A stretch of 64,000 nt of DNA. It comes from a virus. Taxonomy: Duplodnaviria > Heunggongvirae > Uroviricota > Caudoviricetes. The DNA lies in the IMG/VR virus record IMGVR_UViG_3300028898_000252, positions 29,946 through 93,945 of that record; one strand, given 5' to 3'. The position numbers were made by a program, and so were the translations under genes. A model generated the notes under the pieces. It was not told the DNA's origin and did not search any database. It worked only from the letters and a program-made list of their open reading frames with translations. Below are positions 2,480 to 31,610 of this stretch, piece after piece. Numbering within the stretch: the first letter of the stretch is position 1; every line of letters starts with the position of its first letter.

Positions 2480-2483
2480 GATA

Positions 2484-5046: not shown

Positions 5047-5121
5047 TGGAGCGGCCAGCGAGATTCGAACTCGCAACACTCTGTTTGGAAAACAGAAACT
5101 CTACCGTTGAGTTATGGCCGC
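5047..5121 (-). tRNA. tRNA-Gly (anticodon UCC), CCA encoded
   Basis: Acceptor GCGGCCA/TGGCCGC. D-arm ACTC-AACGGTA-GAGT. Anticodon stem TCTGT/ACAGA, loop TTTCCAA. T-arm GCGAG-TTCGAAT-CTCGC. Confidence 0.8.
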
Positions 5122-5134
5122 AGAAAAAAGTAGG

Positions 5135-5190
5135 AGAGCAAAGAAACTAGTTTTTATAATCCTTTATACTTTAGAAGGAAGTTTCTCTAT
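5135..5190. repeat. tRNA-spacer inverted-repeat element, copy 2
   Basis: Same AAGAAACTAG ... TAGAAGGAAGTTTCT consensus as copy 1. Confidence 0.55.
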
Positions 5191-5454
5191 AGCCTACTAT
5201 GGAAACGTCAATGAACAACAAAACATAAGTTACATGCTTTGCGGCGCTGTTTCATGAGCTTGAACCAATGTCTAGCAACAAAAGAGGGTTTATTTCTTTT
5301 ATTCTAGAGAAAACAGCAAGGGGCATACCTCGATGGAACTCGTACGCCAAGAACATCATTCAAACAGTGTCTCTGTCTTCCATGAACTATAACTTACTTG
5401 AAGTTATTGACGTTCCTAAACCTCAACCCATCTGAGGTTGTACTTTGATACAAG

Positions 5455-5700
5455 AGAGCAAAGAAACTAGATTTCTGAAAAAGGAATAGAAGGAAGTTTC
5501 TTTATCTGTTCTCCAAAACTTACTTAAAATCATTTCTGATTTTAATGTTTGGTTCCTGTTTCTCGGACAAACTGGTTTTTAAACGAAAGTTTAAAAACGA
5601 ACTCTCATCTCCGCAGGCTTTTGATTCTACTTCCATAGAATTGGTTTCCGTGGAACCCACGGTACCTTTTAGCGGTTCCCCCGAGACTTGAACTCGGAAC
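5455..5700. repeat. segmental duplication unit A (about 245 bp; paralog of 6983-7225)
   Basis: Spacer IR element, then the shared stretch ttctccaaaacttac..tttctgattttaatgtttggttcctg..ttctc.gacaa, then gaactctcatctcc.caggcttttgattc, then the hairpin ccgtggaacccacgg followed by TACCTTTTAGCGG, ending at the 3' end of a tRNA. The two copies are about 90% identical. Confidence 0.6.
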
Positions 5701-5745
5701 CTTTTGCTTAACGGGCAAACACTCTACCAGTTGAGTTAGAGAACC
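5673..5745 (-). tRNA. tRNA-Asn (anticodon GUU)
   Basis: Acceptor GGTTCTC/GGGAACC. D-arm ACTC-AACTGGTA-GAGT. Anticodon stem TTTGC/GCAAA, loop CCGTTAA with C at position 33. T-arm CCGAG-TTCAAGT-CTCGG. Confidence 0.7.
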
Positions 5746-5759
5746 ATTTTATTTGTTGG

Positions 5760-5828
5760 TGGGAACCGTTGGATTTGCACCAACATCTCAAGCTTGAGTA
5801 GCCTGTGTTTTGCTTAAACTAAATTCCC
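5760..5828 (-). tRNA. tRNA-like element, degenerate; anticodon loop TACTCAA lacks U33; T-loop TGCAAAT
   Basis: Acceptor GGGAATT/GGTTCCC. A 4-nt D-loop. T-arm GTTGG-TGCAAAT-CCAAC. The anticodon region can also fold as the CTCAAGCTTGAG palindrome. Paralog of 7492-7563. Confidence 0.3.
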
Positions 5829-6102
5829 TTGTTTTGTTTCTGTAAAACAATATCTTTTATTCTTTTGGCCTTTTCCCTGGATGCTCCATAAACAAAAAGA
5901 TAAAAAGAGTTGAAAATGGAGGAATCCAGTACCAAATTGATATTACTATGTTTATGCTTGCCGCGATAAATAAAGTCCAATATCTAAACCTTTTATCTTT
6001 CCATCTTTGAAGAGGACTGCTTACATCTATTGTTGTAATTTTTGGATGTTGCCGCGGAATTTCTATTTTATACGGTTTCCGATATGGATTATCCATTTTA
6101 TT

Positions 6103-6178
6103 TGGTGAACCCGACAGGACTTGAACCTGCAACATTTTGGCTGCAAACCAAACACTCTCCCAATTGAGTTACGAGCCC
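6103..6178 (-). tRNA. tRNA-Ala (anticodon UGC), G3:U70 present, CCA encoded
   Basis: Acceptor GGGCTCG/CGGGTTC carries the G3:U70 Ala identity pair. Anticodon stem TTTGG/CCAAA, loop TTTGCAG. T-arm GCAGG-TTCAAGT-CCTGT. Confidence 0.8.
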
Positions 6179-6183
6179 TTATT

Positions 6184-6708
6184 TTATTGGTAATATTCCT
6201 TTGGTAAACTTACATTTACATTTTTCACTTCAATAATTTCTTTTGCCAAGAAACTTGTATGGCGATAATAGTATACTAAATTACCCATTTCTAAGTCAGA
6301 CCTTTTTACCAAAGTTTTTTCATATTCAATTAATTTTTTAATGGTTGAAAAATTGTTTATATTTTCTTTTAATTCCTTTTGCAAAGTTTTAATAAAACCT
6401 AAACCAACATTAGGATTATTTAAAATATTCCATTTAGCTGTTTTAAGGTCAACTTTACCAGAATAACGATTGCGTTCTCTAAGTGTATAAAAGAAATATT
6501 CTCCATCATCTCTCTTTATACAACAATCTCCACGTCTATATTCATCTTCTCCTCCATAATACGGAAATACTTCTGTTTTAAGAGAATCATCATTGACATT
6601 TTCAATCAAAAAATCAAAACGATTTAAATGCCTTATCAATAATTGTTCAACTATGTCTGTTTCATAGTCAAAGCAATAAATCTCTCCTCCATAGTTTAAC
6701 TGGTACAT
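6184..6708 (-). CDS. hypothetical protein
   Basis: 174-aa ORF between tRNA-Ala and the next tRNA. Confidence 0.5.
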   Translation of the reverse strand: MYQLNYGGEIYCFDYETDIVEQLLIRHLNRFDFLIENVNDDSLKTEVFPYYGGEDEYRRGDCCIKRDDGEYFFYTLRERNRYSGKVDLKTAKWNILNNPNVGLGFIKTLQKELKENINNFSTIKKLIEYEKTLVKRSDLEMGNLVYYYRHTSFLAKEIIEVKNVNVSLPKEYYQ

Positions 6709-6733
6709 CTTTATCTTTTCTTGAGGAATTTAG

Positions 6734-6804
6734 GAGTCAGGAATGGAATCGAACCATTGACCTCGCACTTCCACAGCACGGCTCTACCACTGAGCTACAC
6801 GACT
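6734..6804 (-). tRNA. tRNA-Pro-like (anticodon UGG), imperfect
   Basis: Canonical D-arm GCTC-AGTGGTA-GAGC and T-arm AATGG-TTCGATT-CCATT. The acceptor has one mismatch. The anticodon loop TGTGGAA has G at position 33. There is no spacer nucleotide 26. Confidence 0.4.
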
Positions 6805-6818
6805 CATATAAACACCAA

Positions 6819-6876
6819 GAAAGCAAGAAAACTAGTTTTTTCACCCTTTGAATTTTTAGAAGGAAGTTTTCTTATG
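6819..6876. repeat. tRNA-spacer inverted-repeat element, copy 4
   Basis: agcaagaaaactag ... tagaaggaagttttcttat, lying between tRNA-Pro-like and tRNA-Glu. Confidence 0.6.
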
Positions 6877-6886
6877 GCTTGGTGCT

Positions 6887-6963
6887 TGGTGATCCCAATG
6901 AGATTTGAACTCATATTTCTCATTCTGAAAAAATGGTAGCCTAAACCGTTAGCTGATGGGACC
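6887..6963 (-). tRNA. tRNA-Glu (anticodon UUC), CCA encoded
   Basis: Acceptor GGTCCCA/TGGGATC. Anticodon loop TTTTCAG on a 4-bp stem with one C:A mismatch. T-arm ATGAG-TTCAAAT-CTCAT is perfect. Confidence 0.7.
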
Positions 6964-6982
6964 ATAATAAAACATACAAACG

Positions 6983-7225
6983 AGGAAAGCAAGAAAACTA
7001 GTTTCATTCACATATTGATTTTAGAAAGAAGTTTCCTTATATTGTTCTCCAAAACTTACTCAAAACCATTTCTGATTTTAATGTTTGGTTCCTGCTTCTC
7101 AGACAAGCTGATTATTTCCCAAAAAGGAAATAATGAACTCTCATCTCCACAGGCTTTTGATTCGAAAGTTTTCATTCGAATCGGTTTCCGCGGAACCCGC
7201 AGTACCTTTTAGCGGAGTATGCGAG
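6983..7225. repeat. segmental duplication unit B (paralog of 5455-5700)
   Basis: See unit A. It ends at the 3' end of tRNA-Asp. Confidence 0.6.
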
Positions 7226-7284
7226 AATTGAACTCGCGACGCTCGGATGACAACCGAGTGTTATGACCATTTAACTAATACTCC
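7213..7284 (-). tRNA. tRNA-Asp (anticodon GUC)
   Basis: Acceptor GGAGTAT/ATACTCC is perfect. D-arm GTTA-AATGGTCA-TAAC. Anticodon stem CTCGG/CCGAG, loop TTGTCAT. T-arm GCGAG-TTCAATT-CTCGC. Confidence 0.8.
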
Positions 7285-9464: not shown

Positions 9465-9899
9465 TTACTCCTTTTTGGTAGATACTGTATCTGTTAGATT
9501 CAAATAAGAAATAAAATTTTCAAGATTTGAAAAAGTAACATATAGATAAAAAATTCCGCCTTCACCTAAAAGTTGAAACTCAACAAAATCCGCAATATCT
9601 GAAATTCTATGATTTAAAATAAGATTAGATTCTTTTACCGAGAATCCTATATTCCTTATATGTTTTAAACTAAAAACACTTGTGCAAGATAACCGTATGT
9701 TTGCCTCCGAAACCAATTCCCAATTTTTTAATTCTCTAATATCTTTGTCCCAAGCATGAATCGATCTTTTTTCAACAAAAAGATCGATATTAAAATCTAT
9801 AGATCCTTTTTCTAAAAGGGTTTTAATTATTTCTTCTGGTTGCTTTGCTGACTGTTTTGTTGTCATTTTGGTTAATCTTCTTTTCTGATTAAGTCCCAA
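9465..9899 (-). CDS. hypothetical protein
   Basis: 144-aa ORF. Confidence 0.5.
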   Translation of the reverse strand: MGLNQKRRLTKMTTKQSAKQPEEIIKTLLEKGSIDFNIDLFVEKRSIHAWDKDIRELKNWELVSEANIRLSCTSVFSLKHIRNIGFSVKESNLILNHRISDIADFVEFQLLGEGGIFYLYVTFSNLENFISYLNLTDTVSTKKE

Positions 9900-11356
9900 A
9901 TATGTTTAAATTCATTTTGTGAATAAGATGAAAGCCTATAACTTTTTCTTTCTGGTTCGTAAGAACTAGGGGCAACTGTTTCAGTTGTTGCATCCACATA
10001 AGCAGAATATTTTCCATCTTTAGTTGTCATTGTTTTGTTCCAGCAGTCAGCTCCAATAACTTCTTTAATTTCTTCTTCAAGATTTTTTGCAAATGTTGTA
10101 TCAATGTTTATTCCGCGATATGGAGTTCTAATTCTTTTTAAGTCACTGTAAGCGTAAAGATGGCAAAGAATTTCTAAAACGTCTTTATTAGATGCTTTAA
10201 CCAAAGATTTTGGTCCTCTTCCAGTGTCTTTATGTCCCAAGAAAGTTACTATTGGATTAAAAGGAAACTCATATAGTTGTTTTATCATTTCAGCAAGTTC
10301 TTGTTTTGAACAAGAACCAACAGGATGTTGCAAACATATTTTGTGGTGGATTGGTGAAATCGTTTCTCCGAGAGAGGTTATAAGATTTTGAATCTCAAGA
10401 ATATCTTTCTTGCTATCAACAGAAAAAGCAAAAGCGCCAACATGATCTTTAATCAGATTAGTTATTAATGGATTTTTTAAAATACTATAATTTTTAGTAG
10501 TAAAGTTTACGGTAAGACCAAGAGAATCATAATACTTTATTATGTCAATAAAATTTGGATGAAGTGTTGGCTCGCCCCCTCCAACCGCAACTTCTAAAAC
10601 TCCAGAATTAAACAGAACTTGTCCAATTTTTTTTATCGTTTCAAATGAAGCGTGTTTTCCTTTTTTTGTTGAATCTTGATAACAATAAGAGCAATCAAAA
10701 GGACAGTAATCAGTAATTTTTAAGTCTACCAATTCTGGTTTTGGTGATGAATTTGGAAGCTCTCCGTTGGAGAACTTTATTTTCATTTTAACTCCAGATT
10801 TTTTATCAAAAATAAGAAAATAATCTCCTGTTTCAAAATATTTTCCAATATAGCCTTCTCCCTTTGGATACTTTTCCAGAAAATATTTTTGATTCCAAAG
10901 CCTAGGGAAAGGAATATTAGCGTTAAAACTTTCTAAATCTGGTGGAGGATTAATTTGAGAAGGTTCGTTATCGTTGCCTCCGTAAATTGCTATGTTTGGA
11001 TTTGAAATCCAATCCACCATTTTTTGAAACCAAACTGGGTGTGGTTCTGTGCCTGTTTCATTTGGAACAACAAACAAGCCCCAAACAGATTCATGATCAA
11101 TATTTCTACCACCAAAATCCCCAGAAAGTTCATGCAACCCATTCCAAGATGAAGCAATTTGTGATTTTAAGTAATCTACTTTTGCCTCTTTTGAAACAAG
11201 TTGAAAGTCTTCCCAATTATAATTTCTCCGACAGGGATTTATATCTTTTAAGAAAGATATGTCTTTATCAAATAAAAGAACTGAGTGAGAACTTGAACTG
11301 TTTGTTGCAAAACCTTCTCGATAGAAGAGAATTCTTGGAGTTGGATTGAATGTCAT
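9872..11356 (-). CDS. radical SAM domain protein
   Basis: CPFDCSYC (CxxxCxxC) followed by AVGGGEPTL. A large N-terminal extension of about 200 aa precedes the domain. Confidence 0.75.
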   Translation of the reverse strand: MTFNPTPRILFYREGFATNSSSSHSVLLFDKDISFLKDINPCRRNYNWEDFQLVSKEAKVDYLKSQIASSWNGLHELSGDFGGRNIDHESVWGLFVVPNETGTEPHPVWFQKMVDWISNPNIAIYGGNDNEPSQINPPPDLESFNANIPFPRLWNQKYFLEKYPKGEGYIGKYFETGDYFLIFDKKSGVKMKIKFSNGELPNSSPKPELVDLKITDYCPFDCSYCYQDSTKKGKHASFETIKKIGQVLFNSGVLEVAVGGGEPTLHPNFIDIIKYYDSLGLTVNFTTKNYSILKNPLITNLIKDHVGAFAFSVDSKKDILEIQNLITSLGETISPIHHKICLQHPVGSCSKQELAEMIKQLYEFPFNPIVTFLGHKDTGRGPKSLVKASNKDVLEILCHLYAYSDLKRIRTPYRGINIDTTFAKNLEEEIKEVIGADCWNKTMTTKDGKYSAYVDATTETVAPSSYEPERKSYRLSSYSQNEFKHIWDLIRKED

Positions 11357-11974: not shown

Positions 11975-12871
11975 TTATTCTTCTTCGTCTTCATCGTAAT
12001 CACATTCATCATCTTCTTCGTCACAATCACAAAGAAGTCTGCCCTCTGATTCGCTATATTCAAAAATACCATCACATTCTGGGCAATACTCTTCTTTGGT
12101 TTCTTTTTCTGGTTCTGGGCCAGAGGCCATAATTCTTTCACCGTCGGCGAGAAGTTTTTCTTGTCTTGGTGCCGTGATTACTTTTACAACCTTGTATCTA
12201 CAGGTTCTCATTTTACCTTGGTTGTAATCAATTGGCACAGCGACAACATCGGCGGGATCTACTTCTACCTCAACCATATGCCCTTCGCCGCCATAAAATG
12301 AACTATTGGCATAATTCCAGTTTGCCACATGCAAACCAGAAGAACAAGTTTGTGTTGGATCTTCGTCAACTCGTTCTCTTGGCATTTCAAGAACTTTTCC
12401 AGGACTGTTATCAAATGTTCCGCTGTGGTAATCTTTAAAGTCTGTTCTTATTTTTTTATAGGCAATAAAATTGCCGTCTTTTGTAATTGGATGTTTGTTG
12501 GCATCCAAGAAACCAAACAGCTGATCAATTGAAGATACAGATGGGTTTTTGCGAAGTTTGCGGCAAAAGTTTATGAGCGGTGTTATTTCAATTTTTGCAT
12601 TAATAAACTCAAGAAACTTTTGTCCAAGAGAACCGTGAATTTCTTTTCCATCAAGGAAAACTTGGCCATCAACCAAATCAAGCATTCCTTCTGATTTGGT
12701 TTTCATGAAATGGGCAATGCTTACAGCATCTCTAATTGCTGCTTCATTTTTATCTTGTAAAGCTTGCGAAAGGACAGGATACATTCCGTCCGTGTTTAAT
12801 ACGATAAATGGATTTCCGTCTATGTTGACGTTAATGGAACTTTTCGACTTGGTATATGTTATGTTATTCAT
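11975..12871 (-). CDS. hypothetical protein with an acidic, Cys-studded C-terminal tail
   Basis: 298 aa. C-terminus CPECDG...CDCDEEDDECDYDEDEEE. Confidence 0.55.
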   Translation of the reverse strand: MNNITYTKSKSSINVNIDGNPFIVLNTDGMYPVLSQALQDKNEAAIRDAVSIAHFMKTKSEGMLDLVDGQVFLDGKEIHGSLGQKFLEFINAKIEITPLINFCRKLRKNPSVSSIDQLFGFLDANKHPITKDGNFIAYKKIRTDFKDYHSGTFDNSPGKVLEMPRERVDEDPTQTCSSGLHVANWNYANSSFYGGEGHMVEVEVDPADVVAVPIDYNQGKMRTCRYKVVKVITAPRQEKLLADGERIMASGPEPEKETKEEYCPECDGIFEYSESEGRLLCDCDEEDDECDYDEDEEE

Positions 12872-12876
12872 TTTGT

Positions 12877-15117
12877 TTACATCCTACTTAGAATTTTGGG
12901 GCGAACAGGATTTAAATAACCACTTAATTTAATAGAGTCAACTAAGTTAATCAACTCTAACAGTTCAGGTATTCCTCTATAACTACTGCTTCCAGTTTTT
13001 AAAAAAGGAACATTGTACCATTCATCAAATTGTTTTTTAAGTCCAATAATTTTAGAAATCCTGTCTTTAAACTGTGGATCGCCGTAATCTGGTTCTCTGT
13101 CATATTTGTATAAAGCAGCCAAGAGTCTTACTTTTCTAGAAGCTTCAATTTCTTTGTCTTTTAATTCATTTAATTGTTTGAAATATTCTTTTACAAAAGG
13201 TGGAGATTTCGAAAGATATAAAGTTTGTATCTCTTCGTCTATAAGACACCCAAGTCCCGATCTGTTTGTCGAATAACTTGACCCAATATAAGATGGTGTT
13301 AAACGGAGAGAAGACATTTCTTCTCCATATGTTCTTTTAGCAGAAGAGGCATACAACAGATATTGTTTCCATTCGTCTGGAGTATGTTTTTCATACTCTC
13401 CCTGAATAAGTTCTTCTACATGGATTGCCCCTTCTTCTGCCATTAACTCTTCAATTTTTTCTCTTGAGACTTGAGAGGTCTTAAATCCATATATATTATA
13501 TCCAGTGGATGCTCTTAAAAATTCTAGGTCTCCTACTCCGTAATTGAATTTATCAGCATCTTTTCTTTCGGGATGTTTTTCATCGTTAAGAAACACATAC
13601 GCTTTCTTGCCTTTATCTTCGTCAAACACCGCAAGAGAGGATCTTGTGAAAGCTTTGTCTGGCATTGAAAACCCAGACCAGTCACAAGTTTCTTCTGTAA
13701 AGTTTGGAAACCAACAAAGTTTGAAAAACAGGGTTTTTGTAAGAGCTTGTTTTCTTTCTTTAGCATCTAGGAATTTGTAATAGTCTTCGAGTTTATGTGC
13801 CCCGATTTCTTTAAGATACAGTTCTTTTTTCTTCTCTGGCGCAACTGCCCTTGTATTAATCAAACAAATCTTGTTATACATACTTGATGTAATCTTAAGT
13901 TTTTCAAGCATTATAAGCATTGCTTTTTCGACAGTTTTGTTAAACTCTCGTTCAGTTTCAACATATAAAACTTTGGATTCGATCCTGTATGCCGTATCAT
14001 TTCCCTTGGTCATCTTTGTAACATATGGAACACTATAGCAACAGCTGTAAGCTCCATAGGTTGATAACTTGACATATTGTTCTATTAATGGTGTTCCTTT
14101 CCAAGAAAAATTAGATTTATCTAAATAAATGCTAAGTTTATTTTTAATTGAATCAAAGTTGATTACCGCATCAGCGTATGATTCTTGCTTGTCGACTTCG
14201 GTTTGAAGTATTTTTTTAACTTCATCTTCGTAGTTTTTAAGAATTGCTAATATTTTCTTTTTGTTCGCATCGCTTTGTTTTAGAGTTTCTCTGTTTGGAG
14301 AGACTTCAAGTTCTCCAGTTTTGAACTCCATATAAAGATTACAGTTTCCAATTTTAACTAAGTTAAAATCAACCATTGTTTCTTGAATTGGATATTCAAT
14401 TTCATCTAATACTGCATACAAACTTTTTCTGTTATGCGGTTCGATAAACCATCTCGTTCCAGACAATAATGGTTTTACTTTTCTTTGATCAACAGAATTA
14501 AATGCGCTAATATTTTTAAAGGTTGGAGGATTTTTCCAGTGTCTTACCACAGAAGTAGATTCTTTGTGAAACTGATCTATGTCTTTGTTCTTAACTGGAA
14601 CAACTATCTCGGTTCCGTTTTTTTCTGTTGTTGGTTGCTCCGACATTAACTGTAAAATGCCACGTTCGGTTTCGTCTATGATTGCGCAGTAACTTCTTTT
14701 GATTCCATCAATAAAAGTATTGATTATGAAAGAATCTGAATAACCAAACGCAGACTTTGCTCCCAAGCCAAAACCACCTGTTTCAGTATTTGATCCACGT
14801 TTTGTGGAATTGCCATACTGAATAAAAACATTTGACATACGTTCAGGTGAAATTCCTGGGCCGTAATCCCTACATTTCCAGTGCAGGTCGTAAGCAGTTG
14901 GTAATGTAACCAACACCTTAGTTTGTGGCGAGTTAACTTCTCTGTGTGCGTCGCGGGCATTACAAATATACTCTTGAGCAATTGTCCGAATAATATTTGA
15001 ATATAGTTGCCCTCTTAAAAGAGTAAGAACGAAACCAACATCCCCAATGTCGAATTTTTCTTCTTTTTTTACTCCAAAGCTTTCTAGGTTATGATCTTTT
15101 GTCTCAGCAATCTTCAT
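12877..15117 (-). CDS. GHKL-family ATPase (Hsp90/MORC/histidine-kinase-like ATP-binding fold)
   Basis: N-box EYICNARDAH. G1 box DYGPGIS. G2 box ETGGFGLGAKSAFGYS, close to Hsp90 GxFGVGFYSAF. 746 aa. Confidence 0.7.
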   Translation of the reverse strand: MKIAETKDHNLESFGVKKEEKFDIGDVGFVLTLLRGQLYSNIIRTIAQEYICNARDAHREVNSPQTKVLVTLPTAYDLHWKCRDYGPGISPERMSNVFIQYGNSTKRGSNTETGGFGLGAKSAFGYSDSFIINTFIDGIKRSYCAIIDETERGILQLMSEQPTTEKNGTEIVVPVKNKDIDQFHKESTSVVRHWKNPPTFKNISAFNSVDQRKVKPLLSGTRWFIEPHNRKSLYAVLDEIEYPIQETMVDFNLVKIGNCNLYMEFKTGELEVSPNRETLKQSDANKKKILAILKNYEDEVKKILQTEVDKQESYADAVINFDSIKNKLSIYLDKSNFSWKGTPLIEQYVKLSTYGAYSCCYSVPYVTKMTKGNDTAYRIESKVLYVETEREFNKTVEKAMLIMLEKLKITSSMYNKICLINTRAVAPEKKKELYLKEIGAHKLEDYYKFLDAKERKQALTKTLFFKLCWFPNFTEETCDWSGFSMPDKAFTRSSLAVFDEDKGKKAYVFLNDEKHPERKDADKFNYGVGDLEFLRASTGYNIYGFKTSQVSREKIEELMAEEGAIHVEELIQGEYEKHTPDEWKQYLLYASSAKRTYGEEMSSLRLTPSYIGSSYSTNRSGLGCLIDEEIQTLYLSKSPPFVKEYFKQLNELKDKEIEASRKVRLLAALYKYDREPDYGDPQFKDRISKIIGLKKQFDEWYNVPFLKTGSSSYRGIPELLELINLVDSIKLSGYLNPVRPKILSRM

Positions 15118-15213: not shown

Positions 15214-16164
15214 TTACATACTTGATAGGTCGCCAGGATCTTTCCAACAATCTATATCAAGATAAGCAGTAAAATAATCCACCAAGTCTCCAGTATGAAG
15301 GTCTTCTTTTCTCATCCAAAGAAGAAAAGGCTCATCGAAAACAAGAGGATTTTCTTTTGGCCGAATTGATGTTGCGCATCTCGTTACAGCAACAGCCGCG
15401 GCACTTTTAGCTCTTGCACCATGTTCATTTAATTTAAACTTGGTTTGTTGCAGAGCTTGCGACAAACACATTTCTTCTTCTTTCTCAGAAGAATTCAGTT
15501 TTGCCATAAATGACATTCCAAGCAAATAAGATAGATCTGATTCATAGTTTAGATCAATTTTTGGAATTGTTACAGAAGAATAGTTTTGGTATTCTTTTCT
15601 TTTTACGTTAAACATTTCTTCCGCAGAGATTTCTCTCAAGGTTTTAATTTGTTCTGCCGTGAATGGACCTTTTGCAAGGTACATGCTATCCACAAATTTA
15701 TCATTTTTTTGTTTAAGATCAATTCGAGCATAAATTATATCATCAACGAGAAACGTATCGAAAGAATTTGAAATTTTAATTGAGGGATAAGAAGTAACTT
15801 TGCCTTCTTTTGCAACGATCATGTTGGTCGATTGTGCTTTTTCAACCCATTCAACTAATATATCCATAATAGCAGCGGCACCAAAATCTGTTGGATTTTC
15901 AAATTTATCCAACTTGATATCAAATCCATTATCTGATAAAAACTTGTTTATTTCTTCGTGAGAAAACGAGGCAACACATCTCATTTCTTTTTCAGAAAAG
16001 AAATTCAAGTAACCATTTGTAATATATGGTTTATAAATTCCATTTAAGAACTTTCTTTGCTCTGGAATGATATGTTTCCAGGGAGATGTTGCTTTTCCTG
16101 TAAACTCAATTGCAGATTTTAATGCCGCGACAACAGGCGGCATCACAGACACAGATGAACTCAT
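15214..16164 (-). CDS. hypothetical protein
   Basis: 316-aa ORF. Its start overlaps the stop of the upstream gene by 4 nt. Confidence 0.55.
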   Translation of the reverse strand: MSSSVSVMPPVVAALKSAIEFTGKATSPWKHIIPEQRKFLNGIYKPYITNGYLNFFSEKEMRCVASFSHEEINKFLSDNGFDIKLDKFENPTDFGAAAIMDILVEWVEKAQSTNMIVAKEGKVTSYPSIKISNSFDTFLVDDIIYARIDLKQKNDKFVDSMYLAKGPFTAEQIKTLREISAEEMFNVKRKEYQNYSSVTIPKIDLNYESDLSYLLGMSFMAKLNSSEKEEEMCLSQALQQTKFKLNEHGARAKSAAAVAVTRCATSIRPKENPLVFDEPFLLWMRKEDLHTGDLVDYFTAYLDIDCWKDPGDLSSM

Positions 16165-16908: not shown

Positions 16909-18978
16909 TTAAGGAATCAATTCTTGAAGATTGTTTTGTCCAACAAGTTTAACATCTTTTAAGTTTTCTGTTTCAATTGAATCGGAATAAACAAACAATT
17001 CTTGTTGTGTCTCTTTGTTTTGTTTTTCTTTATACAATTCAATTATCTCTCCAATTTTAAAGAAATCTTTTTCAACAATTGATTTAACAAGAAGAGAAGC
17101 GTTCTTTGAATTCTTTTCAACCATTCCCATAAAACTAAAAGAATTTAATGAGAGGTGCATCCATTTAGCGACCCATTTATTTCCGCGGCGCATGAAAACA
17201 AGAGGCAACGAAAGTTGTGATTTTCCTTGCAGTTCAGATTTGAACTTAACAGTTTTTGGTTCGAATGCCAATCCTTTTTCGGATTGATTTCTTTCCATGA
17301 ACCCAAAGAAAACCTCTTTCGCTTCGTCAAACTTCTCTCCAGAAAACACATTAATCTGCGGAATGATATATTCCACATCGCTTGGGATTTGATTTAGTCT
17401 TATGTCGATAAATTCTGATGCACCATTAGGTGCCGATGTTATATCTCCGCTGTGTGTCGCATAAGAGTTTCCTAATCTTGTAAACGAGACTTGCGAGGCT
17501 AAGTTAAAATTCTTATCCAAGAAAATTGTTGATAAGTCGTAATCTGTTCTTATTTGGTTTTGATGCCAATAGATGAAAAATCTAAGGGTGTCAACATCTG
17601 ATATTGGTGTCTCTGATCCAATTGGTAGAATACCAATTCCTCTTGGTTTTAATTTATCAGATGTTGGTAGCGCCACAGTCTCAAGTTCTTTTGAAACCGT
17701 AATTTCTTTATAAGATTTAATTCTTGATTTAAGAACTTCTTTCAAATCTTTGATAACCGTTTCGACAGTGGAAGAATCAATTTTCTCAATTGAATTTTTC
17801 ATTTCAAAATAAGATTTGCCTTTTTTGTTTGTATAAATTTTCATTTTGCCGTTTCTGTTTCTCAAGTGTTGAATTAAAGAAATAATAATCTTGCTCGAAA
17901 AGGATTGATAAAACAATTGAAGTTCGGAAGGAGAAATGTCTTTGTTTTCTCTTAAAACTCTATCCAAGTTTCTTCCCAAAAGCGAAGGATATTCCTTAAA
18001 GAAAGAAAAAATATTTTCCTTGTCTTTTGATAATAACACAGCTTCAAGTTTCGAAGCTACAGTTTGAACTGTCTTCGTATCTCCCCTTATTTCATCAAAG
18101 AAAGTTTTTATAGTTTTGAATTTCGATTCGTGTGGGTGAATTTTTTCACCAATTCTTTTCCACTCTTCTCGATAAGAAAGAGCGTCGGCAATCGAGTTGG
18201 AATTTCTTTCCATTAAAGAATTTAATTCCTTAAATATTGTTTTTCTTAGTTTCCTTGGAAACTTCTTAAACTTTGTTTTTTCTGTTAGAGTAACATCCCC
18301 AGAATTCATCGCTACGACAAACCTTAACAAGTCTGTCGATGTTGAAAACATCATATCAAGACTTCTATCGTGTTTTATTTTGTTTAAAAGTGCTAAATTT
18401 TCTTTAATTGTTGGAGTAAATCCATTTATACTTTCATTAGGAATAAATTCTTCGTGACTTGAAATAAATTCAAGATCATTTGCAGACAAAGGAATAGATG
18501 ACTCTACGAGTTGTTTTGTTCTTAATAAAACTTCTTCTTTAAATGTTAAACCAAGATTTAGCATCTTGAAATATCGAGAATGGTTTTCAATAAACTCTTC
18601 TTTGTTTTTTTGATATTCCTCAAATGTATGAGTTACATTTTTTCCATAAAAACAAAACAGATTAAATAGTTCCATATCGGAAGGATGAAATCCTCCCTTT
18701 TCAAAATTTTGGAAGAATGGATTATAGTTTTTTGTAAGTCCAAGTTTTTCTAAAAGTTTGCTTAGTATAACGTCAAGTTGTTGAATTTCTTCTTTTGAAA
18801 GTTTCTCTGCCCAAAATGTTAACTCTGGAGAAAACGTCCACCCAAATGTCATAAACTTAGTTTGAAGTTGTGAACTTGTTTCTACACTAGAAACATTTCG
18901 TGGCTTAGCTAAGCCAAGCACATCTACAGGAAGTCTTTTTGTTTCTGCAACTAGATTTATAACTGTTTCGATTTTCAT
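16909..18978 (-). CDS. hypothetical large protein
   Basis: 689-aa ORF with no recognisable motif. Confidence 0.6.
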   Translation of the reverse strand: MKIETVINLVAETKRLPVDVLGLAKPRNVSSVETSSQLQTKFMTFGWTFSPELTFWAEKLSKEEIQQLDVILSKLLEKLGLTKNYNPFFQNFEKGGFHPSDMELFNLFCFYGKNVTHTFEEYQKNKEEFIENHSRYFKMLNLGLTFKEEVLLRTKQLVESSIPLSANDLEFISSHEEFIPNESINGFTPTIKENLALLNKIKHDRSLDMMFSTSTDLLRFVVAMNSGDVTLTEKTKFKKFPRKLRKTIFKELNSLMERNSNSIADALSYREEWKRIGEKIHPHESKFKTIKTFFDEIRGDTKTVQTVASKLEAVLLSKDKENIFSFFKEYPSLLGRNLDRVLRENKDISPSELQLFYQSFSSKIIISLIQHLRNRNGKMKIYTNKKGKSYFEMKNSIEKIDSSTVETVIKDLKEVLKSRIKSYKEITVSKELETVALPTSDKLKPRGIGILPIGSETPISDVDTLRFFIYWHQNQIRTDYDLSTIFLDKNFNLASQVSFTRLGNSYATHSGDITSAPNGASEFIDIRLNQIPSDVEYIIPQINVFSGEKFDEAKEVFFGFMERNQSEKGLAFEPKTVKFKSELQGKSQLSLPLVFMRRGNKWVAKWMHLSLNSFSFMGMVEKNSKNASLLVKSIVEKDFFKIGEIIELYKEKQNKETQQELFVYSDSIETENLKDVKLVGQNNLQELIP

Positions 18979-24666: not shown

Positions 24667-25239
24667 ATGAAAAAATACTTTTGCTTTGATACAGAAACAG
24701 GTGGTCTTTCAGAAAGAACAAGTTTGTTAACCCTATACGGGATTATAACAGATGAAAATCTAGAACCCGTAGATTCTATTAGTTTAAAACTAAAACCTTC
24801 AGACGGGGTATTTCTTGTAGAAGGACAGGCATTAGAAATAAACAAAATTAATTTAGATAAACACTCCAGGGTTGCTGACACTTATGAAGTTGGGGCAAAA
24901 AAACTAAAAGATTTTTTGTCAAGACATGTAGAAAACCATACGAGAAAACTTGATATTATTGGCCAGAACGTTATAGAGTTTGATATTCCAAGAGTTAAAA
25001 ACTTTCTCTTGTCTGACGAAGAATTCTCTTTTTATTTTTCGAGAGAAACCAAAGACACAAAGGTGCAAGGAATATTTCTAAAAACACTTGGAATAATTCC
25101 TGGAGATGTTAACTCGTCATTGATAACCCAGCTTAAATTCTTTTTTCCAGATTTAAACCTTGATGGGCACCACGATGCAAAATGGGACACCGAGCACACA
25201 TTAAAACTCTATAAGAAACACGTTTCTATTCTAGAATAG
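24667..25239 (+). CDS. DEDDh 3'-5' exonuclease (DnaQ-like); possible TAG readthrough extension to 25572
   Basis: Exo I CFDTETGGL. Exo II IIGQNVIEFD. Exo III HHDAKWD. The stop is TAG at 25237-25239. The downstream ORF 25273..25572 lies in the same frame with only 11 sense codons between. Confidence 0.75.
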   Translation: MKKYFCFDTETGGLSERTSLLTLYGIITDENLEPVDSISLKLKPSDGVFLVEGQALEINKINLDKHSRVADTYEVGAKKLKDFLSRHVENHTRKLDIIGQNVIEFDIPRVKNFLLSDEEFSFYFSRETKDTKVQGIFLKTLGIIPGDVNSSLITQLKFFFPDLNLDGHHDAKWDTEHTLKLYKKHVSILE

Positions 25240-25547
25240 AGAACAGGTGGTTATTGCCTCTTTACGGAGAAATTGGCGAGCTGTAAGGTGCGGAGTATGT
25301 CAAGCCTAGAACTCCACGATCTAGAATTTGTTTTGGTTCCGCAATCAAACTCCAAAACCAATAATGGCATTGAACAATTTAATGTACTTTTGGAAAATAA
25401 ATTAATTTGTTCGACAATTGAATTGGATGGTAAATGGATCTTGGTTGATACCTTAACGGGGAGAAGTGAAAAGTTTGACTTGCAAGAAAGTCTAGAGAAT
25501 CGAATTCTCGAACTCGCAAACTCCTCAAAGAAAGGAAATCAAAAAAA

Positions 25548-25898
25548 ATGCTTGACACATCTTCTCTCATAAAGGTTGATCCAAGGGGACTAAACACAGA
25601 AAGTTATGATTTAGACTTAATCACAAGTAAAACGTTTTCAAGTGTCCTTTCTGGTCATGCCGCCTCGCTCAAACTTCAAATTGATATTGACCATAAACAA
25701 AATCATGTTGCTTTTGTGGTTGAAGGAAAACCAATTTTGGGTGAACATATGTTAGGTAAAGAAGTTGTTGCCGCGACTTTTATTCCAACAGCAAATGCTT
25801 TGGAGCATTGGAAACTAATCGTTGAAAGACTTATCCACGCTTGGGATTTGATAGCGGCTCCAATTCAAACAAAAGAAGTTCTCAAAGAGAAACTCTGA
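25548..25898 (+). CDS. hypothetical protein
   Basis: 116-aa ORF. Confidence 0.45.
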   Translation: MLDTSSLIKVDPRGLNTESYDLDLITSKTFSSVLSGHAASLKLQIDIDHKQNHVAFVVEGKPILGEHMLGKEVVAATFIPTANALEHWKLIVERLIHAWDLIAAPIQTKEVLKEKL

Positions 25899-25916
25899 AA
25901 AAGAAAGAACAAACAC

Positions 25917-26294
25917 ATGGAAACAAAGCTGTCAAAAACTCTGATCGCTTTTCTGAATAAATTCCAGAAAGAAATCGAAAAAGGTCTCCATGTGTACGGA
26001 TACAAAGCAATACACTTATCAACAAAAGACCTGAAGAATTTCCACGATATTCTTGAAGAGATTAAAAACTTTTTTTCGGAGAAAGAAATAAGGTGTGAGT
26101 TTACACCTTCTGATAATTTCATTTCATTTTGCTGGGTAGTGCCTGCGAATATTGCTCGTAAAGATGCCTTTGAAAACACACAAGGAACTAATGTTACCGA
26201 AAAACTTTCATATTTTAAAAAATATGAGACGCACGAACGACCAAACAAACAAATTCCTCGGGATGTGTGCCTTGTGCGTTTTGGAATAGGATGA
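25917..26294 (+). CDS. hypothetical protein
   Basis: 125-aa ORF. Confidence 0.5.
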   Translation: METKLSKTLIAFLNKFQKEIEKGLHVYGYKAIHLSTKDLKNFHDILEEIKNFFSEKEIRCEFTPSDNFISFCWVVPANIARKDAFENTQGTNVTEKLSYFKKYETHERPNKQIPRDVCLVRFGIG

Positions 26295-26303
26295 ACTAAA
26301 AAA

Positions 26304-26726
26304 ATGGCGAAAGTAGAAATCGTAAAACAAGACTTATTTGATGCTTCAAACCTTGTAATAGGTCACGGAGCAAACACAAAAGGTGTTATGGGTGCAGGTA
26401 TAGCTAGAGTTTTTAGAAAGCTATACAAAAACAATTACATTGCTTATCTTGAATCTTGTGTCGCAGGGACATTTTGTCCAGGTGGAATTCTTATTGTAAA
26501 AGAAAAAGAAAGACTGATTGTAAACATTGCATCACAGGATTTCCCTGGTCCTTGTGCAAAACTTGAATGGATTGAACAAGGATTAGCTAAGTGCGCGGCA
26601 AATGAAATTAAATCAATTGCTCTTCCCTGGATTGGGTGTGGAATTGGTGGACTTAAAAGGGAAGACGTTCAAAAAGTTTTAGAAGATTCTCCTCTCGATT
26701 ATATTAAAGTTTGCGAAGTTGACTAA
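26304..26726 (+). CDS. macrodomain protein, DarG/TARG1-like (ADP-ribose hydrolase family)
   Basis: GHGANTKGVMGAGIARVF matches the NTxGVMGKGIA motif. IALPWIGCGIGGL matches the IAxPxIGCGLGG motif of the TARG1/DarG macrodomain clade. 140 aa. Confidence 0.75.
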   Translation: MAKVEIVKQDLFDASNLVIGHGANTKGVMGAGIARVFRKLYKNNYIAYLESCVAGTFCPGGILIVKEKERLIVNIASQDFPGPCAKLEWIEQGLAKCAANEIKSIALPWIGCGIGGLKREDVQKVLEDSPLDYIKVCEVD

Positions 26727-26757
26727 CTGACCAACTCTCTAAAAAGGAAGAAATGAA

Positions 26758-27672
26758 ATGAACCTAAAATCTCAAAAAGAGCTACACGTTGAATTTCTTC
26801 CTTTTCAAAAACTTATAGACTATATTAAAATCGGCGATGCTCTTGGAATGGGATTTGAGTATACTTCAGATAAATTTATAAAAGAAAATCTTTGGAAAGA
26901 AAATACTTTGCCAAAATTTATTCAACATCCATATTGGGCAACCCTTACCCCAGGAATGTATACAGACGATTCTCAAATGAGTATTGCACTTATTAAGTTA
27001 ATGTTAGAAGAAGAAACAACTGAATGGTTTGATGATCGAGTTGTCGGAAGATACTTTCTTTCTGAATTTAAATCAAGCCCTAGACAGGGATATTCGACTG
27101 GTTTGTATAAAGTTTTGTCTACTTCAAAAACAACAAATGAATTTTTGGAACAGATTGCCGCGTTTGGAAAGTCTTCAAAAAATGGCGGCTGTATGAGAGC
27201 TGTCCCAATTGGTTTATTACCTGATTTGGAAATGGTAAAAAAATTTGTAAGATTCCAAGCGGAAACAACCCATTCAGGAACAGGCGTCGATGCAGCAGAA
27301 ATGATTGCTGTTGCGGCATTTGGATTGAAATATAAACTAACAGAAAAAGATAACAAAGTTGATGTTTATGGTTGGGTGAAAAATAACACTTCTTATTTTC
27401 CAGAAATTATCAAAGAACTTAAAAGAGTTGAAGGCTCAAATAATCTCGGTTTATTAACTTCAATTTCAGTGCTAAAATTATTTAGTGAATTTGATTTGAG
27501 GTTAGGATTACATGAACTGATAAGAAGGTGTATTCTTTTAGGTGGAGACACAGATACGGTTGCCGCGATTGCGGCGGGGTTATATGGATGTTGGATACTT
27601 TCAAAAAGTAAAAAACAAAGAAGGGTTTCTTATATAAAAGAAATTAAACCATTGATAAGGTTTGTAAAATGA
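26758..27672 (+). CDS. ADP-ribosylglycohydrolase (ARH/DraG family)
   Basis: GDALGMGFE. YTDDSQMSIAL. GGCMR. GGDTDTVAAIAAGLYG, the classic ARH metal-binding motifs. Confidence 0.85.
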   Translation: MNLKSQKELHVEFLPFQKLIDYIKIGDALGMGFEYTSDKFIKENLWKENTLPKFIQHPYWATLTPGMYTDDSQMSIALIKLMLEEETTEWFDDRVVGRYFLSEFKSSPRQGYSTGLYKVLSTSKTTNEFLEQIAAFGKSSKNGGCMRAVPIGLLPDLEMVKKFVRFQAETTHSGTGVDAAEMIAVAAFGLKYKLTEKDNKVDVYGWVKNNTSYFPEIIKELKRVEGSNNLGLLTSISVLKLFSEFDLRLGLHELIRRCILLGGDTDTVAAIAAGLYGCWILSKSKKQRRVSYIKEIKPLIRFVK

Positions 27673-27756
27673 TTACAACTATCGACATACTTTTATGCGG
27701 AATGTTTTCGACACTTGGTTCGCTGTTAATTTTGACACATAAAACACTCAAATAAC

Positions 27757-28338
27757 ATGACTACAACTACACACCAAACAAACGAAGAAAACCTATTGCA
27801 AGAATTTGCCGAATTTAGAAAAGAAGAAGCAATTGAGCTGTTGAAAAATTTATTTAAAGCTTATTTTGCCGCAAATAAAAACTATACTTTTGTTGTTGTT
27901 GAGCATAATAGCCCAAAAGATAAAATAAAATTAAAATTCTTTTCTGTTGATCTGGAATCGGAAATGGAAAAAAATTACTATTATATTTCAGATAAAATTG
28001 GGGATAGGCATTTCGCTGCCGATACCTCGGATGAGGTAATTCAACTTCTTCATCCATTCAAACCTGAATCAGTTGAGATTTCTATTCCGCATTATTTGCT
28101 CGCGGAGCCAACAAAGTTTAAATCTAGAACTTGGATAAATTTCCTAAGATATGGGAGGACTTTTTTCCAAAAAGGAAAAGTTATATCTCCGTATAGAAGA
28201 CTTTCTCATAAAGGTGATGGATTAGATATTTTTGTAGATCATAACAGCCTGCTAACTGCTTTTACAGATAATGGATCAATTTTTGATAATAAAGGAAAAT
28301 ACTATAGAGGAATAGATTATGTCAAACTCTCTACCTGA
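27757..28338 (+). CDS. hypothetical protein
   Basis: 193-aa ORF. Confidence 0.5.
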   Translation: MTTTTHQTNEENLLQEFAEFRKEEAIELLKNLFKAYFAANKNYTFVVVEHNSPKDKIKLKFFSVDLESEMEKNYYYISDKIGDRHFAADTSDEVIQLLHPFKPESVEISIPHYLLAEPTKFKSRTWINFLRYGRTFFQKGKVISPYRRLSHKGDGLDIFVDHNSLLTAFTDNGSIFDNKGKYYRGIDYVKLST

Positions 28339-28891
28339 AACAAAACTAAGTTTGGAAGAAATAGAAACTGTTAAAGAAATTAAAAAAATAAAAGAAATGG
28401 CAGATGATCTTATTAAAAACACAGTTAGAATGGTTTTTGATAAAAAACCAAAATTAACATATCTTTCCCTTTCTCATTCTCAAAAATATTATTCTTTAAG
28501 TGTGTTAGAATCAGAACTTTCTATGGATCAAATTATAGATCTCGCAATTGAAGATTTGGGTACATATCCATGTAGGAAATACAAAATTGCCGATCCTAAA
28601 ACCACTAGAACTGATGAGATGAAAATTCAAGACTATAAACTATTATGTAATCGTAGAACCGATCCACCTACCACTTATATTGATATAGAAAATTATTTTA
28701 AATGGACTCAAATTAATCCAAACAATAGATCTCTTTCCGAAAAGAACTTTCCAAAAAAAGATGGGTATGACTTATTTAAGTTGTTTAATACCGAACTAGC
28801 AGTCTTTTCTAGGATTTCAGAATTAGACCACTTGGTTTTTGATAGAAACCTAAATACAATAGATTTAAAACTTGTGGTGGAAAAACTATGA
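28319..28891 (+). CDS. hypothetical protein
   Basis: 190-aa ORF. Overlaps the upstream gene by 20 nt. Confidence 0.5.
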   Translation: MSNSLPETKLSLEEIETVKEIKKIKEMADDLIKNTVRMVFDKKPKLTYLSLSHSQKYYSLSVLESELSMDQIIDLAIEDLGTYPCRKYKIADPKTTRTDEMKIQDYKLLCNRRTDPPTTYIDIENYFKWTQINPNNRSLSEKNFPKKDGYDLFKLFNTELAVFSRISELDHLVFDRNLNTIDLKLVVEKL

Positions 28892-29508
28892 TCGACCAAG
28901 AAAACACATTTTCAACAGACATTGAACAACAGTTGAACCTGTCTATTTTAGACATAAAAAATTTTGCTAATACAGCAGTTTCTAAATATCTAGATGGAAT
29001 CTTCGAACTGAATCCAGATATTCAATTTATCTATTTTTTATTAGATGGCGATTACGACGAAGAAACAATATCAGTCTATTTGATAGAATCTGAGTTTGAA
29101 ACAATAGTAGATGAATGTTTTACTGAGTTTAAAAGAAGTTTTGGTTCTAGAAGAACAAGCAAAGATTTTATTACAATAAACTGCCAACACCCTCTTTCAA
29201 AAGAAATTCATAAGTTTTGGTATCCAGTTGCCCTTCATGAGTTATATGATGGAATTTTACCAATTCCAGTTGAAAATATAATTTCACGTTTAAAATACGA
29301 ACTTCGTACTCCTAGTAAAAGAGAAACTCATCACGATGATGGTTTAGATATTTTAAAACAAAGGGCAATAGAAATAAAAAAAATACTTGATTTTACAAAT
29401 ACTGGATATGAAACTTTTTACCATAGATCTGGAAAACAATACTCTGGATTTTCTTACGAGATTGGCCCAACCGTTAAAGTTAAAAACTTTGGAGTTAAAA
29501 AACTGTAA
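28888..29508 (+). CDS. hypothetical protein
   Basis: 206-aa ORF. 4-nt overlap with the upstream gene. Confidence 0.5.
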   Translation: MIDQENTFSTDIEQQLNLSILDIKNFANTAVSKYLDGIFELNPDIQFIYFLLDGDYDEETISVYLIESEFETIVDECFTEFKRSFGSRRTSKDFITINCQHPLSKEIHKFWYPVALHELYDGILPIPVENIISRLKYELRTPSKRETHHDDGLDILKQRAIEIKKILDFTNTGYETFYHRSGKQYSGFSYEIGPTVKVKNFGVKKL

Positions 29509-29540: not shown

Positions 29541-29678
29541 ATGGAATATGAACATAACAAGGAGTCTCCAAAAACAATCTCCGAGGTTGTTATTGGACTA
29601 ATGACAGGAACTATTGCGATTGGAATTCTTTGTGTATTATATATTCTTGTAAAACTTGCGAAAGCTGTATTCCTATGA
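29541..29678 (+). CDS. small membrane protein, 45 aa, not in the ORF track
   Basis: MEYEHNKESPKTISEVVIGLMTGTIAIGILCVLYILVKLAKAVFL. Its TGA stop overlaps the ATG of the next gene. Confidence 0.3.
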   Translation: MEYEHNKESPKTISEVVIGLMTGTIAIGILCVLYILVKLAKAVFL

Positions 29679-30124
29679 AAGAAACTTTTTCTGTTTCTGT
29701 AACAGGTCACCGCGATTTGTTTCACGATGAAAAAGAAATAGAAAAAAAGTTTTTGAATTTTATTGATATTCAAAAAGGGTTAAATCCCGACAAAGAAATT
29801 GTTGTAAACACAGGAATGGCAGTAGGATTTGATCTTCTTGTTGCCGAGATTTGTCTAAAACAAGGAATAAAATATAACGCCATATTGCCTTTTGAAGATC
29901 ATCTTAAAACCAATGAAATCTTTTGCTTGTTAAAAGAAGCGGCAAACAAAGTTGTGGTGGTCTCAGAAGGACCATATGCGAAATACAAATATTTTATAAG
30001 AGATGTTTGGTTGGTTGATAATGCAAATGTCTTATTTGCATACTTGATTAAACCAGGAAAAAGTGGAACACGATTAACAGTTGAAGAAGCAATAAAAAAG
30101 AAAAAAGAGGTTATTTACTTCTGA
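29675..30124 (+). CDS. SLOG/YpsA-like (DUF1273-like) protein
   Basis: N-terminal MKETFSVSVTGHRDLF and TGMAVGFD resemble the YpsA/DUF1273 SLOG family. The track start 29630 is probably too early. Confidence 0.5.
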   Translation: MKETFSVSVTGHRDLFHDEKEIEKKFLNFIDIQKGLNPDKEIVVNTGMAVGFDLLVAEICLKQGIKYNAILPFEDHLKTNEIFCLLKEAANKVVVVSEGPYAKYKYFIRDVWLVDNANVLFAYLIKPGKSGTRLTVEEAIKKKKEVIYF

Positions 30125-31509: not shown

Positions 31510-31581
31510 GTTTCGCTAGTTCAGCGGTAGAACGGCGGGCTCTAAACCTGCAAGTCATAGGTTCGATTCCTATGCGGAGCA
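31510..31581 (+). tRNA. amber suppressor tRNA (anticodon CUA, reads UAG)
   Basis: Acceptor GTTTCGC/GCGGAGC with two G:U pairs. D-arm GTTC-AGCGGTA-GAAC. Anticodon stem GCGGG/CCTGC, loop CTCTAAA with U33 and A37. T-arm ATAGG-TTCGATT-CCTAT. Discriminator A. No CCA encoded. Confidence 0.8.
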
Positions 31582-31610
31582 CAAACAAAAACATAAAAAG
31601 GAAAACAAGA

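Follow-up and report, generated by a model that had tools for sequence, protein, structure and literature searches.

The stretch of viral DNA described here (64,000 nucleotides, positions 29,946 to 93,945 of IMG/VR record IMGVR_UViG_3300028898_000252, called "the window" below) comes from an uncultured phage and encodes two neighbouring proteins that are predicted to act on ADP-ribose (ADPr). The first is a standalone macrodomain of 140 amino acids (26304..26726, + strand). The second, separated from it by 31 nucleotides and lying on the same strand, is a 304-residue member of the ADP-ribosylglycohydrolase (ARH) family (26758..27672, +). With a probability of about one half, the two are independent ADPr erasers with complementary chemistry, which would undo ADP-ribosylation carried out by host defences. 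Judging from its sequence, the macrodomain is most likely an orphan DNA ADP-ribosylglycohydrolase of the glutamine type, resembling the AdfM (anti-DarT factor macro) proteins of other phages. Its neighbour is related to the hydrolase ARH3. Both open reading frames (ORFs) had been delineated exactly by an earlier reading of the same DNA, made without database searches (the sequence-only reading).

The macrodomain and its glutamine-type active site

The macrodomain exceeds the gathering threshold of the Pfam Macro family (PF01661; 38.5 bits, cut-off 22), and its AlphaFold model (predicted local distance difference test score, pLDDT, of 96.7) has the alpha/beta fold of that superfamily. Within the superfamily it belongs to the ALC1-like class, that of DarG and TARG1, by both sequence profile and fold. 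A search of the solved structures with the single sequence found TaqDarG (E-value 3.9e-13) and MtbDarG (1.5e-9), with TARG1 next. When a family profile built on 23 homologues was searched against the sequences of the PDB, the matches were MtbDarG (7e-37), TaqDarG (4e-33), TARG1 (9e-24), T. africanus DarG (5e-23), BT1257 (9e-13), Poa1p (3e-12, N-terminal half only) and SCO6735 (2.5e-11). TaqDarG, TARG1 and MtbDarG also lead the Foldseek ranking obtained with the model, and the best library matches are DarG of PADLOC (2.3e-26) and antitoxin_DarG of NCBIfam (6e-23), of which the macro part alone is covered. The protein is closer to DarG, TARG1, Poa1p and BT1257 than to the MacroD, viral, PARG or macroH2A types, and the placement in the TARG1/DarG clade that the sequence-only reading had proposed is borne out by the profiles, by Foldseek and by both libraries. 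There is also a match to phrog_335 (E = 7e-31), a family annotated as 'phosphatase'. The macrodomain family is found by tblastn in 826 of 50,697 phage records.

The macrodomain is not a DarG antitoxin, because Gln78 replaces the catalytic lysine and the DarT-binding domain is lacking. The protein ends at residue 140, without that C-terminal domain. Against the DarG equivalog of NCBIfam (NF048014) it reaches 81.6 bits, far below the cut-off of 250, over positions 2-134 of the 338 in the profile. No DarT (DUF4433) gene was found beside it among the approximately 89 window ORFs that were scanned, and the flanking ORFs have no family matches. Of the solved structures, DarG of the DarTG2 systems (TaqDarG, PDB 5M31 and 5M3E; MtbDarG, 5M3I) is nevertheless nearest to the macrodomain in both sequence and fold, with Asn22 and the phosphate-binding loops in common.

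The key residues of the macrodomain are Asn24, the loop G27-x-M-G-A-G32, Gln78 and the loop I110-G-C-G-I-G-G116. The sequence-only reading gave the two loop motifs nearly correctly: they read NTKGVMGAGIA (from Asn24) and IALPWIGCGIGG, with Ala31 where the lysine found in DarG had been quoted and isoleucine where leucine had been quoted. The catalytic signature that it had assumed is absent. The P-T-K-K sequence of DarG (Lys80) and the I-T-K-K sequence of TARG1 (Lys84) align in every alignment with A-S-Q-D of the macrodomain, which places Gln78 at the position of the lysine, while the position of TARG1 Asp125 is occupied by Gly115. Both catalytic residues of TARG1, and thus the lysine that it shares with DarG, are missing, and the reading had itself named such an absence as grounds, formally, for rejecting its proposal.

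The replacement of lysine by glutamine is a feature of the clade and not a one-off change. Gln78 and Asn24 are retained across the 23 homologues. When 1.84 billion cluster representatives were scanned in full with HMMER, 22,231 relatives were obtained at E <= 1e-3, and among the 150 best representatives glutamine occupies position 78 in 149 and asparagine the position of Asn24 in all. In a scan of bacterial and archaeal genomes the Gln type was seen at the seven closest loci and at two others, mostly as standalone proteins of about 150 residues; seventy further loci are of the Lys type (P-T-K-x-H-W), most of them extended at the C terminus, as is typical of DarG-like proteins.

Two unusual architectures were seen among the relatives. 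A metagenome-assembled genome of the Terriglobia (L098:4986-5945, +) encodes a Gln-type macrodomain of the same family to which a NADAR domain (PF08719, 1e-27) is joined at the C terminus; the fusion would unite in one protein both eraser folds, those of DarG2 and DarG1. A 435-residue protein (P0154) consists of two tandem macrodomains of this class, having glutamate and lysine where Gln78 stands.

A glutamine at the position of DarG Lys80 together with a supporting asparagine is the arrangement found in SCO6735 of S. coelicolor (PDB 5E3B; Gln85 and Asn27). Gln78 and Asn24 of the macrodomain correspond to these residues by a transitive equivalence, made through the DarG/TARG1 alignment published for SCO6735 (PMC9411070) and not by direct alignment. 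Like the macrodomain, SCO6735 is ALC1-like and lacks both catalytic residues of TARG1. It frees DNA of thymidine-linked ADPr and neutralises DarT; the substitution Q85A, at the Lys80/Lys84 position, abolishes activity and N27S nearly does so, and the proposed mechanism is water-mediated, with the glutamine positioning the distal ribose (PMC9411070). Because this Gln-type relative is active and depends on its glutamine, the loss of the lysine does not imply that the macrodomain is inactive, and a rule equating the absence of the DarG/TARG1 lysine with inactivity would misjudge the clade. SCO6735 differs in being a cellular protein, in having a longer mobile loop with Lys89 and Lys93, and in having Lys34 where the macrodomain family has Ala31.

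Two phage proteins that are significant matches to the family profile provide a direct precedent for the role in counter-defence against DarT-type DNA ADP-ribosylation that the sequence-only reading had suggested. The T4 protein Tk.4 was named AdfM, since its deletion renders T4 sensitive to DarTG2 (bioRxiv 10.1101/2025.11.20.689424). Like the window protein it is a standalone phage macrodomain encoded among small accessory genes (both have about 140-155 residues), and the two share an H-G-x-N...M-G-x-G loop, the sequence (S/T)-Q-x-x-P-G-P with glutamine at the position of the DarG lysine, and a P-x-I-G-x-G-I-G loop. In the alignment made here Tk.4 reads N-L-Y-T-Q-F-Q-P-G-P, with its glutamine at the same position, although its identity to the macrodomain is 25% and its profile score 65 bits. 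The Tk.4 gene is not beside an ARH gene, and the effect against DarTG2 was established genetically and for T4 only. The other AdfM, gp104 of PhiKZ, removes DarT2-made ADPr from DNA in vitro (PMC13309987). Like the window protein it is an orphan macrodomain of the DarG2-like kind that lacks a DarT-binding domain (27% identity, 86 bits against the profile), but it keeps the catalytic lysine (Lys78, in P-T-K-D-N-W-R) where the window protein has Gln78 (in A-S-Q-D-F-P-G). The phage nucleus imports the PhiKZ protein, whereas nothing suggests import for the window macrodomain. AdfB of ICP1 was set aside as a comparator, since according to its paper it acts by interacting directly with DarT, and it is not described there as a macrodomain.

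These comparisons suggest how the macrodomain might work. Its substrate would be single-stranded phage DNA in which thymidine is modified, and it would bind the ADPr attached to this base. Asn24 would hold Gln78 in place, Gln78 would set the orientation of the distal ribose, and the N-glycosidic bond would be cut by an activated water molecule. Removal of ADPr from thymidine would restore replication in hosts that have DarTG2-type systems.

The ARH3-like hydrolase and its gene neighbourhood

The second protein scores 106.3 bits against the Pfam family ADP_ribosyl_GH (PF03747; gathering threshold 26.2) and matches phrog_6572 (2e-20). It has all of the motifs listed by the sequence-only reading, namely G26-D-A-L-G30, Y68-T-D-D-S-Q-M74 and G262-G-D-T-D-T267, so that both Asp-rich metal motifs are present, and its AlphaFold2 model (pLDDT 96.1) is all-helical, as expected for the family. 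The same reading had taken the protein as typical of the hydrolases that act on ADP-ribosylated arginine, and this assignment has to be changed: the protein is ARH3-like, not DraG- or ARH1-like. ARH3 was already the better match in a single-sequence search (1e-12, compared to 1e-3 for DraG), and a family profile of 30 sequences, searched against the PDB sequences, matched ARH3 at 4e-46, followed by MJ1187 (3e-31), DraG (2e-29), Tri1 (4e-22) and ARH1 (2e-17). The top 36 matches of a Foldseek search of the PDB with the model are all ARH3, with template modelling (TM) scores of only about 0.6. The scores against the equivalogs of DraG (TIGR02662; 42.6 bits, cut-off 337) and Tri1 (NF041672; 13.8 bits, cut-off 490) are far too low for membership.

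HMMER alignments relate Glu41 of human ARH3 to Glu34 of the window protein, Thr76/Asp77/Asp78 to Thr69/Asp70/Asp71, His182 to His172, and Asp314/Thr315/Asp316/Thr317 to Asp264/Thr265/Asp266/Thr267. All 30 homologues have Asp27, Glu34, Tyr68, Asp70, Asp71, His172, Asp264 and Asp266, and nearly all have Thr69. ARH3 (ADPRHL2/ADPRS), a eukaryotic hydrolase of serine-linked ADPr, poly(ADP-ribose) and O-acetyl-ADPr, is the nearest characterised relative, being the best match by profile and by fold and having the same metal-binding and catalytic residues, although the identity is about 20-24% and the viral protein is shorter by approximately 45 residues. The conserved residues suggest that the window protein is probably active as an ARH3-like enzyme. 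ARH3 itself handles O-glycosidic linkages, which include those of serine-ADPr, the ribose-ribose bonds of poly(ADP-ribose) and O-acetyl-ADPr. The window protein would be a binuclear-metal hydrolase that removes O-linked or phosphate-linked ADPr, whether of the serine type, in ribose-ribose bonds or at the phosphate ends of nucleic acids. Complementary specificities of this kind are known from the Streptomyces proteins, where SCO6735 does not act on the 5'-phosphate ADPr of RNA and DNA, and the phosphate ends of RNA are a substrate of the ARH-like SCO5809 (PMC11833690). A phage with both erasers could reverse DarT2-like base modification of its DNA and also the O- or phosphate-linked ADPr that other ADP-ribosyltransferases (ARTs) of the host place on proteins or on the ends of nucleic acids.

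The ARH family is rare in phages, being found by tblastn in 8 of the 50,697 records. This agrees with the survey of Iyer et al. 2022, in which ARG, the ADP-ribosylglycohydrolase domain, occurs in roughly 5% of jumbo phages (PMC9503650). The literature searched contained no functional work on any ARH from a phage. One distant ARH homologue (P0140) is fused to an RNA 2'-phosphotransferase domain (Tpt1/KptA, PF01885).

The gene order around the pair is conserved in syntenic relatives, which are metagenomic contigs with macrodomains 51-58% identical to that of the window. It consists of an exonuclease, small ORFs, the macrodomain, the ARH, a short ORF and a DprA/SLOG-like gene, and an ORF of 132 residues sometimes intervenes between the macrodomain and the ARH. 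The small DprA/SLOG-like protein of the window is encoded at 29630..30124 (+), with a probable true start at Met16 (29675), and has weak matches to PF02481, phrog_289 and ShosA. Its orthologues directly follow the ARH in three contigs (L004, L012 and L001), with E-values as low as 1e-6 for PF02481 and one weak match to cpYpsA; the homologues P0147 and P0153 also carry PF02481. The conserved neighbourhood suggests that the SLOG-like gene may be part of the same ADPr-processing gene group. Neighbourhoods of Macro, ARG, NADAR, SLOG and Nudix genes that process ADPr in large phages were catalogued by Iyer, Burroughs, Anantharaman and Aravind in 2022 (PMC9503650). The window resembles them in its clustering of Macro, ARG and SLOG-like genes among small accessory genes of a large phage, but their survey stresses the combination of Macro, NADAR and SLOG, whereas an ARH3-like ARG beside a Gln-type macrodomain is uncommon.

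The ARH profile matched 71 viral loci in IMG/VR, none more than 34% identical to the window protein and many on contigs of several hundred kb. A macrodomain recognised by the macrodomain family profile lies within 10 kb of the ARH in six of the 71 loci and within about 2 kb in four. Three of these four can be aligned at position 78 and all three are Gln-type, as is every alignable one of the six. Because the chance expectation for linkage within 2 kb is below one locus (a rough estimate, which assumes one macrodomain per genome of roughly 300 kb in about half of large phages), the recurring proximity is modest evidence of a non-random association.

Other observations limit what can be read from the linkage. 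The contigs with conserved gene order all belong to one syntenic lineage. In one relative (L012) the macrodomain is replaced while the ARH and the SLOG-like gene stay; the slot is filled by a helix-turn-helix (HTH) protein of 269 residues (L012:4166-4975, +) with a sigma-70 region 4/HTH motif, which looks like a cassette replacement at the locus. Distant macrodomain homologues occur without an ARH, and no macrodomain was found near the distant viral ARH of L013. The linkage gives weak support to cooperation between the two proteins and none to obligate coupling. The view of the sequence-only reading that the pair forms one module is not sustained, as the adjacency is confined to one lineage, is lost in one relative and is tight in only four of the 71 other viral ARH loci.

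Phage setting of the locus

The window has a G+C content of roughly 33%. That it belongs to a phage is supported by homologues of rIIA and rIIB, an array of tRNA genes and further PHROG matches. The rII genes lie within 11975-15117 on the - strand and encode an rIIA homologue of 746 residues (phrog_612, 2.5e-79) and an rIIB-like homologue of 298 residues (phrog_609, 1.3e-68). In T4-like phages the rII products have themselves been linked to exclusion and to the evasion of defences. The tRNA scan found an array of 12 tRNA genes at 923-7284 (-) and a lone tRNA gene at 31510-31582 (+), just upstream of a gene for a Band_7 protein. The lone tRNA has a CUA anticodon, that of an amber suppressor, and is labelled 'Pyl' by ARAGORN. 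Only 8 of the 97 predicted ORFs in the window end in a TAG stop codon.

Profile matches also identify a sigma-70-like protein and a DEDDh exonuclease. The exonuclease ORF (24667-25239, +) has a TAG stop codon, and the ORF at 25273-25572 (+) continues in its frame, so that read-through by the suppressor tRNA would give a protein of 301 residues. This possibility was rejected, since the frames differ in the relatives and the arrangement is probably a coincidence. Three consecutive ORFs of about 190-206 residues (27757-29508, +) separate the ARH from the SLOG-like gene. They are weakly similar to each other, have no family match and are missing from the same spot in contigs L001, L004 and L012. 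Neither PADLOC nor NCBIfam was informative on the small ORFs that flank the macrodomain and the ARH. Between 23.5 and 31.7 kb, promoter and terminator sites are no more frequent than in shuffled sequence, and a transcription unit could not be defined. A megablast search of 25000-29000 against the 50,697 phage genomes gave zero matches; the lineage is known from metagenome contigs only, among them a 99%-identical one of 33 kb and a related one of 57 kb.

Elsewhere in the window, about 20 small ORFs of 117-188 residues are packed tightly on one strand (54042-63943, -) in what looks like a paralogous gene array. Taken together with other small window ORFs outside the scanned set, they have the repeat-like consensus G.K.W.K.G..HR.DGPA.E...W, which recalls MORN-variant repeats, and one ORF of this combined set matches DUF6745. 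Further accessory genes at 9872-11356 (-), 15214-16164 (-), 16909-18978 (-) and 49157-52057 encode a radical SAM protein, a serpin-like protein, a 689-residue protein with a TerD-like domain, and a VWA/DUF2201 metallopeptidase-like protein, whose gene is divergently oriented beside an AAA ATPase gene.

Alternative explanations and biological meaning

Several points weigh against the proposal that the two proteins erase ADPr placed by host defences. Iyer et al. argue from genomic context that phage macrodomains act mostly on soluble ADPr derivatives and not on macromolecules (PMC9503650). The profile match to SCO6735 is only 2.5e-11 and the similarity to T4 Tk.4 is low (25%, 65 bits), so that the shared glutamine could in either case be convergent or serve another substrate. 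The fold similarity of the macrodomain to Poa1p and BT1257 is equally high. Finally, no DarT gene stands beside the Gln-type cellular macrodomains in the loci examined, where the neighbours are unrelated or are toxin-antitoxin or RNase genes (PIN, HepT).

If soluble metabolites were the targets, the macrodomain, the ARH and the SLOG-like protein would degrade small immune signals or toxins derived from ADPr and so silence NAD-based signalling defences. The candidate substrates would be the cyclic ADP-ribose (ADPR) isomers of Thoeris, His-ADPR, ADPr-1''-phosphate and O-acyl-ADPr. A role of this kind, which is tentative and on balance unlikely for the window proteins, was predicted for phage neighbourhoods of Macro, SLOG and NADAR by Iyer et al. 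2022 (PMC9503650). It is consistent with the SLOG-like gene being a conserved neighbour of the ARH, with the macrodomain-NADAR fusion in L098, and with the action of TARG1 and Poa1p, both top fold matches of the macrodomain, on small ADPr esters and phosphates. The ability of ARH3 to cut O-glycosidic ribose-ribose bonds and O-acetyl-ADPr also favours it, for the 1''-2' and 1''-3' ribose-ribose O-glycosidic bonds of the Thoeris signal glycocyclic ADPR (gcADPR) are of the same class and suit ARH3 chemistry. However, the literature searched shows no ARH or ALC1-like macrodomain that degrades Thoeris signals. The known phage counter-measures to Thoeris are sponges and RyR-domain enzymes; among the papers on phage counter-defence involving NAD or ADPR, that on the RyR-domain enzymes mentions neither an ARH nor a macrodomain, and the abstract on NARP3 names no components beyond a PnuC-like transporter and a NadR-like enzyme. 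ARG domains, moreover, prefer macromolecular substrates according to the same survey (PMC9503650), and both of the phage macrodomains of this class that have been tested experimentally act against DarTG2. It is improbable that the macrodomain and the ARH3-like enzyme, together with the SLOG-like protein, constitute a cooperative pathway dismantling ADPR-based immune signals. Were it true, the three-enzyme pathway would be the first case of an ARH with an enzymatic, signal-degrading role in phage counter-defence, beyond the repair of ADP-ribosylated DNA.

Control of the phage's own ARTs had been offered by the sequence-only reading as an alternative. The erasers would then limit or reverse the marks made by a phage-encoded enzyme similar to Alt, ModA or ModB, for example in order to protect phage proteins or to time the takeover of the host. 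Although ARTs are often found along with macrodomains in large myoviruses, where both are expressed early (PMC9503650), and although an ART could lie outside the window, which is only 64 kb of a larger genome, the proposal finds no support in the window, where the scanned ORFs gave zero ART matches. None was called in the related contigs shown either. The best-known phage ARTs, such as T4 Alt and Mod, modify arginine, whereas the window ARH is ARH3-like and not specific for arginine. This function is doubtful, and about as improbable as the three-enzyme pathway.

The least probable of the explanations is that the macrodomain takes part in the clean-up after RNA repair. As a Poa1p-like ADP-ribose-1''-phosphate phosphatase, it would remove the by-product that a Tpt1-type 2'-phosphotransferase leaves when tRNAs cleaved by host anticodon nucleases are mended. 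The 'phosphatase' annotation of phrog_335 agrees with this, as do the heavy investment of the phage in tRNA (13 tRNA genes, with PTH2-like and HD-domain ORFs nearby), the fusion of a distant ARH homologue to Tpt1/KptA in P0140, and a distant macrodomain homologue in L005 that lies about 5 kb from the RNA-repair genes PNKP and RlaP. But neither Tpt1 nor an RNA ligase, PNKP or 2H phosphoesterase was found among the scanned window ORFs, and the profile matches DarG better than Poa1p by 25 orders of magnitude. The word 'phosphatase' is an inherited label, also borne by T4 Tk.4, which acts against DarTG2. The same scan found no match to the Pfam families of ARTs, DarT, Tpt1/KptA, sirtuins, NADAR, Nudix or NAD salvage.

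Removal of ADPr placed by host defences is the explanation preferred here. The recognition that orphan antitoxin-like erasers (AdfN and AdfM) serve phages as counter-defences against DarTG systems is recent. DarG2-like orphan macrodomains were published as anti-DarTG2 factors in 2025-2026, and the clustering of ADPr genes was catalogued in 2022; the macrodomain described here is a divergent addition to these. The locus adds an AdfM-like protein of an uncultured, low-GC large phage, and clarifies that the nearest relatives of this protein are almost uniformly of the lysine-less Asn/Gln type. As a counter-defence kit the pair is plausible though fairly ordinary, its less ordinary element being the ARH3-like hydrolase. 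The substrate of this hydrolase would reveal which extra host ADP-ribosylation chemistry, whether O-linked ADPr, ADPr at phosphate ends or ADPr in signalling molecules, these phages must erase.

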